Part shown: positions 52,570 through 58,169 of the stretch, one piece after another
Position numbering within the stretch: the first letter of the stretch is position 1
Layout of the letters: each line of letters starts with the position of its first letter
Assembly (NCBI GenBank): GCA_045863235.1
Contig: BTUM01000051.1
Coordinates: 1-58,169 of the forward strand
From: Candidatus Xenobia bacterium
Lineage (GTDB): Bacteria > Vulcanimicrobiota > Xenobia > Xenobiales > QWHO01
Length of the DNA: 58,169 nucleotides
Direction: 5' to 3'
Translations under genes and position numbers: made by a program
Notes under the pieces: generated by a model
Told to the model about the DNA's origin: nothing
Database searches by the model: none
Seen by the model: only the letters and a program-made list of their open reading frames with translations

Positions 52570-53469
52570 TCAGGGTGTTCCCTCCACCAGCGAGCCGAGT
52601 CCCAGGAAGGGATCGTCCAGGGGGATCTTGAGCAAGCCCTGGAAGAGCGGCTGACGGCAGTCGTCGGGACGGACCCCCTCCAACTCGGACAAGAGCAGAT
52701 GCACGCCGGGGCGCAGCCGGTTCCGGCTGTAGCTCGAGTCGAGCGCAACCGGGTCGCGCCCGGCGAGCTTGCGGCGCACTTGCTCCACCGACTCGGGTCG
52801 AGCGCTGGCGTCCACCAGACGGGCGGTATACTCCTGGAACCGTGACGGTCCGACCGGAGCCACCTCGGGCCCGGGGCCGGCCTCGAGCGCTTTGAGCACA
52901 GGGCTCTCCACCGCCCCCTTGGCCACGATCACCTCCAGGGGCGCCTGGGAGATCCGGGTGGGAGCCTGGGCGGCGTGCCATTCCCGGATGGCTCGGGCTC
53001 GTCCCTCGGGCGGAGTCCTGTCGAGTCGGGCCAGCAAACCCTCGATACGGTCGAGCTCGGCCAGAAAGTCGGCCGGCGTATAGATGCCCGGCAGGGCGTC
53101 CACCACCGTTCCGTCGCTCAAGCAGACGTACATCACCGTGTTGCCTTTCAGGGTGCGGGTGATCGTGCGGCCTCCCAGGTCGATGGTGACCCGGGGAACA
53201 TCGCGCACCGACTCCCAGGCGCAGACGTAGCGGCGGAGGCGTTCACGAACCCGGTTGTCTGAGAGCAGCACGGCCCTCAGTGTGCGCGCGTTGGTTCAAC
53301 ACCAGCGCTCGTCGAGCCGTCCGAACATGCTCAAGAGCAAGATGGGACGGTCCACCCGTTGGGCCCGATCCTGAGCCAGGGAGAGCGACTCCAGCCACTC
53401 GCCCCCGGCCTGACAGGGAGAGAACAAGACCAGCCCGGCAGCAATCATCAGAAAGAGGCGTCTGAGCAT
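52570..53469 (-). CDS. Putative selenoprotein, SelN-like thioredoxin fold, 299 aa with Sec at codon 58
   Basis: GAGGGG RBS, ATG 53469 and signal peptide; one in-frame TGA (53296-53298) in LLSMFGRLDERWC*TNARTLR, in frame with track ORF 52570..53271. Confidence 0.8.
53259..53280 (-). promoter_or_regulatory. Candidate bacterial SECIS hairpin
   Basis: CTGAGGGC-CGTGCT-GCTCTCAG: 8-bp stem (one G-U) starting 16 nt after the UGA, with GU at loop positions 2-3. Confidence 0.6.
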
Positions 53470-53610
53470 ATCCCTCTGGTCGCGCCCGGGGGGGAATTCT
53501 TCCCGAGGCGGGGCGCCCGAGACCGGATCCCTTGTGGACGACGGATCCGGTGCTCGGTGCCACGCAGGCCCTAATCTATTTCAGAGCCAGGCGCGAATCT
53601 GTGATCCAGG

Positions 53611-54839: not shown

Positions 54840-56697
54840 TTACCGGAGAGCCCGGGAGGCCTGTTGTAGGAGAGAAATACTATCCTGGCGCGAGTCGGCT
54901 GAGAGCTCCCAGAACATGACCCCGCCCAGCCCTTTGGAGCGAGAGTAGTCCAGCTTGCTGGCCAGCGAAGTCGTGTCCTCAAAGGTGATGAACACCCCCG
55001 AGGGGGTCAGGATGTAGGGAACGCGCGCCTGGTCGTCGGTGAAGCGCCGGTAGGTGGAGGGCTGGGCCGCCAGGCGCTGGAGAATGTCGCGATAGTCGAG
55101 CATGCCGGGCTCCCAGGTCCGGACCCACACCGCTGGCCGCCGAGCCGACTCCGGTGGCCCCGGCCCAGGAGCGGCCGTAGACCGGCACCCCCAGCAGGAT
55201 CTTGCCCGGAGGCACACCGGCGGAGAGGTAGCCGCTCACGGTGGCGTCCACCGACAGGCCGTCGGAAGCGTAGAGGGGTGCGTTGTGGCCGGTGCGGTGG
55301 GGCTCCCAGCCGCCGTGGTAGTCGTAGGTCATCAAATTGATGAAGTCGAGCTGGCTGGCCACCCCGGGCAGGTCGACGTGGGTGGGGACGGCGGCCAGGG
55401 CCGCCGAGAGCAGCTTGCCTTCGGCCTGAAGCTGGCGTCGCAGCTCAGTCAAGAGCAAGGTGAAGTTCTCACGGTCGGTCGGGCCGGGATACTCCCAGTC
55501 CACGTCCAGGCCGTCCAATCCGTTGTCGCGGCAGAAGCGCACCGCCGAGGCGGCAAACCTCTGTCTGGCCGCAGCCGTGCGGGCCACCTCCGGGAAACGA
55601 GCCGAGAGGGTGTAACCGCCCACCGCCACCATGACCTTCAGGTGGGGATGCTGGACTTTGAGCTGCCTCAGGCGTGGAAGGTTGAGGGCGGCAGCGGAGC
55701 TGTCGAACAGAGCCAGCTCGCCTTGTGGCGAGATGTCCACGAAGGCGTAGATCAGGGCGTCGAGCTGGTCGGCCGGAACGTCGGTCACCTGGTAGTTGCG
55801 GTCGTAGATGCCCCACTCGGGGAAGTAGGCGGCCACCCGCACGGGGTTCGAGCTGGCGGGCGGCGGTGAGGGGGTTGCTGTCGGGGTGGAGCCGTTGACC
55901 AGAGCGAGCGAGCGGCTTCCAGGGCTTGCCGTGAAGCCGATTTCCACCGAGCCCCCGGGAGCGATGGTGGCGTTCCAGCTCTCCGGGCCCACCCGGTAGA
56001 GGTCGCCGGTCCGCTCCAGAATGCGCCCGTTCCAGAGGGAGTCGACACGGGCGTTCAGACGAAACGACACCGTCCAGTTGGAAACCGGCGCGCCTGTGTT
56101 GTTGCGCACCAGGATGGCGGCCTGCATGCCGCTGCCCCAGTCGTTGACGACCTGGCTGGTGAGGGTCAGGCCGCCCGGCGTGGGCGTCGGGGTCGGGGTG
56201 GGAGTGGCAGTCGCGGTTGTCGTCGGAGTGGGAGTGGGCGTGGGCGTGGGCGTTGAGGTGGAGGAGCCCGCCCCGGTCAGGCTGATGTTACCGGGCAGCG
56301 CGCTCACGTTGCCAGGCGAGCCGTTGAAGCCGAAGCTCAGGCTGCCCCCGGCCGGAATGCTTCCATTCCAGGACTCCGGCCGGATGCGGTAACGAAGGCC
56401 ATTGCGCGACTCGACGCGGGCGTTCCAGATGACCTCGATGGCCGGAGCGAAGTCCCACTCCAGCACCCAGTCGTTGAGAGGCGTCGTGGAGCGGTTGTGA
56501 AGGGTGACCGAGGCGCCGAAACCGGTGCCCCAGTCTCCGGTTATGGTCACCTCGACGTCAGCGGAGGCTCTGGCCTGGTCGTCGGGAACAGTGGCGGGGA
56601 GGGCGCTCTGGGCATTCTGGGTCGGGCCGCCGCAGGCCATCAGCAGCAAGACCAGCAAAATCGCGAGAGCCTGTGGGCTTCTTCGCAGGATACGCAT
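54840..56697 (-). pseudogene. GH18 chitinase lipoprotein with two CBM2 domains, frameshifted near 55120
   Basis: Lipobox LMAC; two CBM2 (DWG.G...W...F...WN); PT linker; DGLDVDWEYP; C-terminal part (TWEPGMLDY...GLGGVMFWELS) is in another frame. Confidence 0.85.
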
Positions 56698-56734
56698 GCT
56701 CAAAAGACCGGACGCGAGGCTCAGAAGGTTCCTC

Positions 56735-57706
56735 TCAGGACCAGGACTGATAGCCGGCCCGCGCTCCGGCGGCGCCGCCAACCACCATGGCCCCCACGAA
56801 CTCGCGGTGCTTGTTGGCAACCGGATCGCCCAGGTCCTGACCGGCTTGGTTCAACTTCTCCACGCTGGCTTCCACCCGCTCGTGGGCAGATTTGGCACCC
56901 TTGAGCGAGGCCAGCAGGGCCACTCCAGCTCCCACGGCCGCCGCCGGAGCGCCCAGGACCAGTGCTCCCAAGCAGGCCGCCACGGCCACCGAGCTCGCGC
57001 CCAGCAACCAGGGCGAGGCCAGTTTGCCCTGGCCCAGAGCCATGCTCAGGCCATCCACCACTGCCCCCGGCACCAGCAAAGCGCCGGTGGCTCCCCCGGC
57101 CAGGCGTGCTCCCCACCCCTGAGGGTTCTCGCCCTCCTTGAGGACGGCCGGCAACATCTGGCCTCCTTCCCACAAACCGGCGGCATCGCCGCGCCCCTCC
57201 GAGTAGCCCACCGCGATGCCGTCCACCACGGCTGTCCTGACTCCGTGGCCGGCTCCCTGGAAGGCCCGCTCCAACAGGCTGCCCTCCGGCTTGTGAGCGG
57301 CCAGATCCTGAGCCAGCTTGAGGTTGGTCCCGCCCCGGCTGACGATGTAGGCCCCCAGGCCGCCCAGCACGCCCTTGGTAAGGAAGGTCTGCAGCATGTT
57401 GCCCTGGGTGCCCAGGGCCAGCGTCAGGCCCACCGCCACCTGCACGCCCGAGGCGATATCGAGCAGGCGCGCGAGCCTCTTCTCGTCCATCCCCCCGCTG
57501 ACCCCGTGAGCCACGCCGGCCACCAGGCAGGGCAAGAACGAGGCCGGAACTTTGGTGAAGGCCTGCACGGTGCCGCACACCTTCTCCAGGGCCACCCGGG
57601 CGAAGGGCGGCTGGTCAGGCTCGGGGGCGGGCCCGTCCCCTGCCGGCAGAGCGGCGGCCGAGGCCTGGTGAGGCCGGGTGGCGGGCAGGGAGCTGGAGAG
57701 TATCAT
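56735..57706 (-). CDS. Hypothetical Gly/Ala-rich membrane protein with N-terminal leader
   Basis: Several hydrophobic GxxxG segments; codon bias. Confidence 0.75.
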   Translation of the reverse strand: MILSSSLPATRPHQASAAALPAGDGPAPEPDQPPFARVALEKVCGTVQAFTKVPASFLPCLVAGVAHGVSGGMDEKRLARLLDIASGVQVAVGLTLALGTQGNMLQTFLTKGVLGGLGAYIVSRGGTNLKLAQDLAAHKPEGSLLERAFQGAGHGVRTAVVDGIAVGYSEGRGDAAGLWEGGQMLPAVLKEGENPQGWGARLAGGATGALLVPGAVVDGLSMALGQGKLASPWLLGASSVAVAACLGALVLGAPAAAVGAGVALLASLKGAKSAHERVEASVEKLNQAGQDLGDPVANKHREFVGAMVVGGAAGARAGYQSWS

Positions 57707-57843: not shown

Positions 57844-58169
57844 ATGAAAGGAGACCCCAGGATGCAGGAGCTGCTGCAGCTGATCGAGGCGATCGAGCGA
57901 ACTTCGAAACAGAGCCGTCGACGCTGGAAACGTGTAGGTGAGCGGCTGGACGAGTGGATCTCGATCTCAGGGAAGATGCAAGAGGCGCTGGCCTCGATGC
58001 AAGAAGCGCAGGTTGAGACCATAAAGTCGTTGGCCGCTACCCAGGATTCCCTGGCCGCTACCCAGGATTCCCTGGCCGCTACCCAGGAGTCGTTGGCCGC
58101 TACCCAGGAGTCCCTGGCCGCTACCCAGGAGTCCCTGGCCGCTACCCAGGAGTCCCTGGCCGCTACCCA
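57844..58169 (+). CDS. Partial coiled-coil protein with heptad tandem repeats (runs off the window)
   Basis: ATG 57844 or 57862, each with an RBS; open to window end; (SLAATQ[DE])n. Confidence 0.75.
58027..58169 (+). repeat. 21-bp coding tandem repeat, at least 6.8 copies
   Basis: TC[CG][CT]TGGCCGCTACCCAGGA[GT] repeated to the window edge. Confidence 0.95.

Follow-up and report, generated by a model that had tools for sequence, protein, structure and literature searches.

Analysis of the window, that is the whole stretch of 58,169 nucleotides analysed here (contig BTUM01000051.1 of a Candidatus Xenobia bacterium), indicated that the minus strand carries a 299-aa frame from ATG 53469 to 52570. 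This frame is interrupted by one internal stop, a TGA at codon 58 (53298-53296) flanked as RPILLLSMFGRLDERWC-TGA-TNARTLRAVLLSD, and ends with a TGA at 52572-52570; the orthologs have the same end point, with TAA, TAG or TGA. Ordinary ORF calling yields only a 233-aa piece from GTG 53271 (codon 67), and the nearest database entries are 215-237-aa pieces lying downstream of the TGA. The preliminary description of this DNA had claimed a 299-aa frame from ATG 53469 with an in-frame UGA, missed by standard ORF calling, and the frame reading bore out both points. The features of the locus are as follows.

52570..53469, minus strand: whole gene, 299 aa with selenocysteine (Sec) predicted at codon 58 (frame reading; ends of orthologs)
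53472..53477, minus strand: Shine-Dalgarno-like AGAGGG just 5' of the ATG (read from the sequence; function presumed)
53407..53469, minus strand: signal-peptide-like N-terminus, residues 1-21, with a basic start and a hydrophobic core (hydropathy; cleavage site presumed)
53020..53406, minus strand: predicted thioredoxin-fold domain spanning roughly residues 22-150 and interrupted by a beta-hairpin insert (93-106) (AlphaFold2; VIA-align)
53299..53301, minus strand: Cys57, adjoining Sec (conserved in Sec-type rows, rare in Cys/Ser-type rows)
53296..53298, minus strand: in-frame TGA, read as Sec58 at the start of the putative active-site helix (TGA kept; Cys in relatives; position in the model)
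53259..53280, minus strand: candidate bacterial SECIS hairpin, whose 8 pairs enclose the loop CGUGCU (fold; pairing conservation; model criteria)
52573..53019, minus strand: predicted C-terminal domain, mostly helical, with conserved residues (AlphaFold2; row conservation; no family match)

The gene stands alone, with a WD40 gene on one side and, on the other, a guaB-type gene for IMP dehydrogenase in convergent orientation, and neither a sigma-70 promoter nor a terminator match was found at the locus. Comparison of 24 loci showed, among the matches listed, no conservation of the neighbours past three close relatives, the exception being a sigma-54-type response regulator, named from its sequence, near the gene in 3 of them.

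Analysis of the host genome (8.4 Mb, 97.6% complete) revealed selA (E 5e-129) and a tRNA-Sec gene (68.7 bits against a cut-off of 47) on contig C23, where selB and selD are also located, the latter carrying a TGA of its own. In a search of 301 genomes from the phylum, 15 gave a match and 10 of these a strong one, the host included; all 10 read W/F-C-TGA-T-N-A-R at the site, the TGA being retained in 9 of the 9 other strong-match genomes. These nine all carry selA, but so do 257 of the 301 overall (a tally that takes in nine unpublished genomes, used for this count only), and selB was found in each of the five carriers tested. A metagenome scan returned 45 loci: 8 had no N-domain match, 6 left the site uncovered, and the 31 that covered it all read TGA. 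The query was the sequence past the TGA, taken from truncated (Sec-type) members, and so favours Sec forms; the 31 of 31 cannot be taken as an unbiased ratio of Sec to Cys.

Screening 1.84 billion representatives with a profile gave 2,236 at E 0.001. Among the best 150 of these, 80 cover the site and have Cys (79) or Ser (1), and the remaining 70 start beyond it, in 66 cases at profile positions 74-81. This adds a large family of selenoproteins, which annotation truncates at the Sec codon. The Cys forms bearing taxon names belong to Armatimonadota and Blastocatellia. An assembly error is not the cause of the TGA: in the bridging contigs of X1, which may be the source, and of X2 and X13 no alternative letter is listed at this position, X3 having no bridging contig. 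Contigs from RNA libraries that span the TGA are no demonstration of transcription. The preliminary description had named as checks a Cys or UGA at codon 58 of the homologs, Sec machinery (selA, selB, selC and selD) in the genome and the letters read at that codon, TGC or TGG speaking against it; all three came out in favour of Sec.

Folding of the region past the UGA gave the hairpin CUGAGGGC-CGUGCU-GCUCUCAG, with 8 pairs, an energy of -12.2 kcal/mol for the local 28-nt piece and its first base (53280) at the 16th place after the UGA; the 6-nt loop starts with C-G, 23 nt after the UGA. The bSECIS model, as quoted in PMC13188914, has a loop of 3-9 nt with a G within its first two places, a stem of 4-16 bp, a distance of 16-37 nt from the UGA and an energy of at most -7.5, and the hairpin agrees with all four criteria quoted there. 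An 8-bp hairpin 16 nt past the UGA with bacterial SECIS geometry, as first described, was therefore confirmed. By itself the hairpin says little, because the 85-nt region folds no better than shuffled sequences (z 0.89; 170 of 200 as good) and 17,179 of the 205,878 TGA triplets of the genome (8.3%) have a hairpin by a loose rule. Its conservation lifts it above chance, since the pairing is kept and the changes are compensatory. The 6-bp core was paired in 97.7% of 258 cells from 43 sequences (9 genomic, 29 distinct metagenomic and 5 SELENON-like), and two-sided changes were found in 5 of the 6 core pairs, which 0 of 500 shuffles matched, slid controls giving 37-67%; relatedness among sequences inflates such covariation tests. 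A pair count on 14 sequences was not significant, its two-sided changes being reached by 61 of 500 shuffles. The Arg codon in the hairpin is AGG or AGA in 10 of 10 genomes, against 9% of the Arg codons of the host genome, and the hairpin codons GCC, GTG and CTC are each present in all 10, their synonymous sites being frozen. From these data codon 58 almost certainly encodes Sec.

Analysis of the N-terminus revealed a hydropathy peak in every member tested, 9 of the Sec type and 2 of the Cys type, and the protein is probably exported by means of a signal peptide. The signal peptide of the preliminary description stands as far as this heuristic goes, while its cleavage site is presumptive. The AlphaFold2 model, built with 32 sequences, has a pLDDT of 90.5 and places a strand at 43-48 and a helix at 59-68; because the helix follows the strand in this way, Sec58 is predicted to lie at the position of the attacking Cys of thioredoxins, and the redox residue opens helix 2 in the model as in the thioredoxin-fold superfamily. 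Proteins of this fold have a cis-Pro before strand 4, with a role in protein-disulfide chemistry. This feature is missing here: G109-N110 is aligned where SELENON and its bacterial homologs have Pro before strand 4, and G109 is found in 74 of 74 rows. The C-terminal part (151-299) has the conserved residues K184, E188, D244, D286, P287, G290 and L291.

Structure searches, mainly with residues 17-168, returned DsbD-gamma, DsbH, AGR and other thioredoxins, the best VIA-align match being 3f9u (Z 9.2, rmsd 2.5, 109 residues aligned). Foldseek returned nothing at E 0.001, the best that a sequence search of the PDB yielded was matches of E 0.9-1.1, and a weak profile match to AGR2 (E 0.88) placed the site on the AGR2 Cys. 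The modelled domain is of the DsbD-gamma/DsbH/AGR type (Thioredoxin_7-like). The family has this fold subclass in common with DsbD-gamma, DsbH, AGR2/3 and the selenoproteins Trx7/PDZ NF041199 and VPGUxxT NF041383, and its homologs gave sub-threshold profile matches to them (best Pfam E 2e-4; NCBIfam E 0.02-0.2); the curated cut-offs were unreached, however, and the family motif is C-U-x-x-A in place of their CxxC, CxxU or VPGU.

The phylogenetic tree was a quick IQ-TREE reconstruction from 78 rows (38 Sec, 36 hand-picked Cys/Ser and 4 SELENON-like), in which the base is not fixed and the outgroup rows fill less than half of the columns. No fewer than 3 Sec/Cys changes are required by its starred branches; since the root is not fixed, their direction is presumptive. 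Cys57 is present in 35 of the 38 Sec rows and in SELENON as opposed to 2 of the 36 Cys/Ser-type rows, and at -1 the two large Cys clades, of 16 and 18 rows, show Pro, Ala, Ser or Thr instead. The link between Sec and Cys57 comes from these two clades of a quick tree. The exceptions are 3 of the 38 Sec forms, which have no Cys57, and one Cys form that retains it. Because no Cys is found at +3, it is simplest to suppose that Cys57 would resolve Sec58 as a vicinal selenenyl-sulfide, the bond formed by the two residues in the GCUG tail of thioredoxin reductase, and that Cys57 may be dispensable in the Cys forms. The natural Sec to Cys series lets the role of the neighbouring Cys be tested.

Taken together, we lean towards a dedicated exported single-Sec thioredoxin-fold oxidoreductase, encoded by a stand-alone gene, with Sec58 as nucleophile and Cys57 as resolving residue. 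SelB would bind the SECIS and Sec would be inserted at UGA58, a step with strong computational support, and the signal peptide would take the protein out of the cytoplasm. Sec58, placed by the model where the first Cys of CxxC stands, would as selenolate attack the oxidised sulfur of the substrate; there is no canonical second Cys, since +3 is Ala, Gly or Ser, and Cys57 may resolve Sec58 as a vicinal selenenyl-sulfide that would also shield Sec from over-oxidation. Re-reduction could proceed through a DsbD/CcdA-type carrier: a DsbD transmembrane domain is present in the host genome and could supply electrons, while DsbB was not found there with PF02600. The C-terminal domain and the hairpin insert probably choose one specific envelope substrate, for which reason a dedicated reductase is likelier than a general disulfide isomerase; among the 24 loci compared no conserved neighbour gene hints at the substrate. 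The Gly-Asn in place of Pro counts against this mechanism, being unusual for protein-disulfide chemistry.

Of the alternatives, a TGA that is a true stop (in a pseudogene, or between a short peptide and a 233-aa protein from GTG 53271) or that encodes another residue is highly improbable. Databases do take a 229-237-aa downstream piece as the protein, and the GTG at codon 67 is a possible start. Yet the TGA keeps one position across proteins about 40% identical and is aligned with the Cys of intact relatives, and a stop there would split one thioredoxin domain; the SECIS covaries, and the gene's own terminal TGA is, on the contrary, aligned with TAA or TAG in orthologs. Synonymous changes predominate on both sides of the TGA in the two closest relatives, although not in the 64% relative.

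If Sec is real, the Cys-Sec pair might instead handle a soft metal or metalloid (Hg, Cu, As) without disulfide cycling. CU motifs occur in the metal-related bacterial selenoproteins SaoL, HgcA and MbdU of PMC13188914, the Gly-Asn at the cis-Pro position fits such a role, and the invariant polar N60, R62, T106, K184, D244 and D286 suggest a small-ligand pocket; the single Cys at the site of Cys-type relatives and the lack of recurring metal-resistance neighbours among the matches listed for the loci compared make this unlikely. An equally unlikely reading, with Sec again real, is a redox-switched AGR2-like binding partner or chaperone, forming a mixed bond with one client without turnover. AGR2/AGR3 and UAS domains are among the nearest folds and a large Cys clade reads SCANS, that is a CxxS motif, but the fold matches reach only moderate Z, and the retention of a residue as costly as Sec is usually a sign of catalysis.

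Alignment of the window protein with marmoset SELENON (selenoprotein N or SEPN1, an animal protein) revealed 26% identity over 108 aa (pairwise E 3e-9), and HHalign of the family against SELENON gave a probability of 96% over about 107 columns, from SELENON residue 399. With the family-domain profile, scaled to 1.8 billion proteins, the best SELENON E was 6e-5, and 8 of 121 rows were below 1e-3, 4 of those being SELENON entries; many SELENON database entries are mis-modelled at the Sec site. The likeness to SELENON first described thus holds for a homologous active-site domain, but for the thioredoxin domain only. Because nothing else aligns, the motif is WCUT and not SCUG, and Pro is replaced by Gly-Asn, the protein is, as judged from these alignments, a domain-level relative of SELENON and not an ortholog. 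In both the Cys-Sec dyad lies between G-x-L-D and R-T-L-R; the window protein has WCUTNAR in place of the SCUGSGR of SELENON, whose SCUG motif is given in PMC12839072. SELENON is extracytoplasmic too, in the ER lumen according to the same paper, while export of the window protein is a prediction. On the contrary, the EF-hand region and the 250-residue N-terminal domain of SELENON are absent here, 21 residues preceding the thioredoxin domain, the extra C-terminal domain gave no alignment with SELENON, and the SECIS is located within the coding sequence, whereas that of SELENON lies in the 3' UTR.

Weak matches in the 301-genome search surfaced a second Sec family, with the motif DQSCUGSGR, in 4 related genomes (G058, G066, G088 and G094). 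HHalign with SELENON covered 315 columns (probability 100%, E 6e-52), and one member as sole query retrieved a Nematostella protein (E 1e-24), itself about 36-49% identical to named SELENON entries. These near-full-length homologs (P0034-P0037, L036) share the Cys-Sec site with the window protein and have an almost identical SECIS stem (HHalign with the window family 98%, 106 columns), but their thioredoxin domain is the last, whereas a C-terminal domain follows in the window protein. The family profile search found none in the window's genome. They are absent from the selenoprotein lists examined, as far as the portions covered extend, and are arguably the larger find. Loci L034, L035, L036, L038 and L039, in G088, G058, G094 and G066, read DQSC-TGA-GSGR and have the SECIS stem and a lipoprotein-like N-terminus, and G066:C139 has two such homologs in tandem.

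A joint reading, which we put forward only tentatively and hold to be doubtful, is that SELENON traces back to exported Cys-Sec thioredoxin proteins forming an old superfamily in bacteria, this widespread family being a sister and the near-full-length homologs direct counterparts, with the neighbouring Cys an obligatory partner of Sec, dropped upon Sec to Cys change. If true, the chemistry of a human myopathy protein would become accessible through small, soluble proteins of bacteria and their natural Cys forms. The bacterial relatives, one of them near-full-length, are tractable models for the Cys-Sec site of that protein.

No Pfam and no NCBIfam family was matched by the window protein at E 1, and the 2,236 clusters of the family have no matching model in either collection. 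The table of 119 prokaryotic selenoprotein families in PMC13188914 (2026) has no SELENON-like entry, judged by names; relative to that table, and set apart by entry names, the family is uncatalogued. The examples shared with eukaryotes that this review gives are SelD, GPX, deiodinase-like, SELENOW-like and MsrA, SELENON not being among them. Bacterial SELENON homologs are unmentioned in the passages covered of PMC13326102, PMC12013277, PMC7539508 and PMC13134290, and likewise in the BSepDB supplement as far as Table S1 extends, the family table S2 possibly lying outside the search. A literature search, with subscription journals mostly outside its scope, found no paper on them.

Further relatives were observed in the same searches. 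A large Cys-only clade (P0105-P0200, motif SCANSR, mostly 350-550 aa) has a helical-looking N-terminal extension, and one member, from Blastocatellia, is named thioredoxin family protein. The more distant relative L033 (G040:C145) reads DSRC-TGA-PAGSAYR, a third Sec subfamily, and another, L100 (G108:C34), has a TAA after Cys at a similar place and is possibly a broken copy.

Other candidates with a TGA and a hairpin were found in the host genome at C77:24950(-), C112:12314(-), C122:13521(+), C45:14246(-), C13:64029(+) and C23:78959(+); named from their motifs, they comprise an MsrA-like, two SelW-like, a thioredoxin-like WUASC and a CPVU protein, and selD. Elsewhere in the window, 54840-56820 (minus strand) encodes a GH18 chitinase with two CBM2 domains and a frameshift near 55118, where two bases present in L041 and L020 are deleted; this is either an assembly error or a recent pseudogene. 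At 57844-58169 an ORF of tandem AATQESL heptads, also present in L020 and L041, is truncated by the end of the contig; the tRNA-Ala that ARAGORN calls at 58063-58156 falls inside this repeat and is probably an artefact. The record of L020, CAZWUN010000097.1, is titled Burkholderiales; its match agrees in coordinates and sequence with that of the same-genus genome G106, and the label looks wrong.
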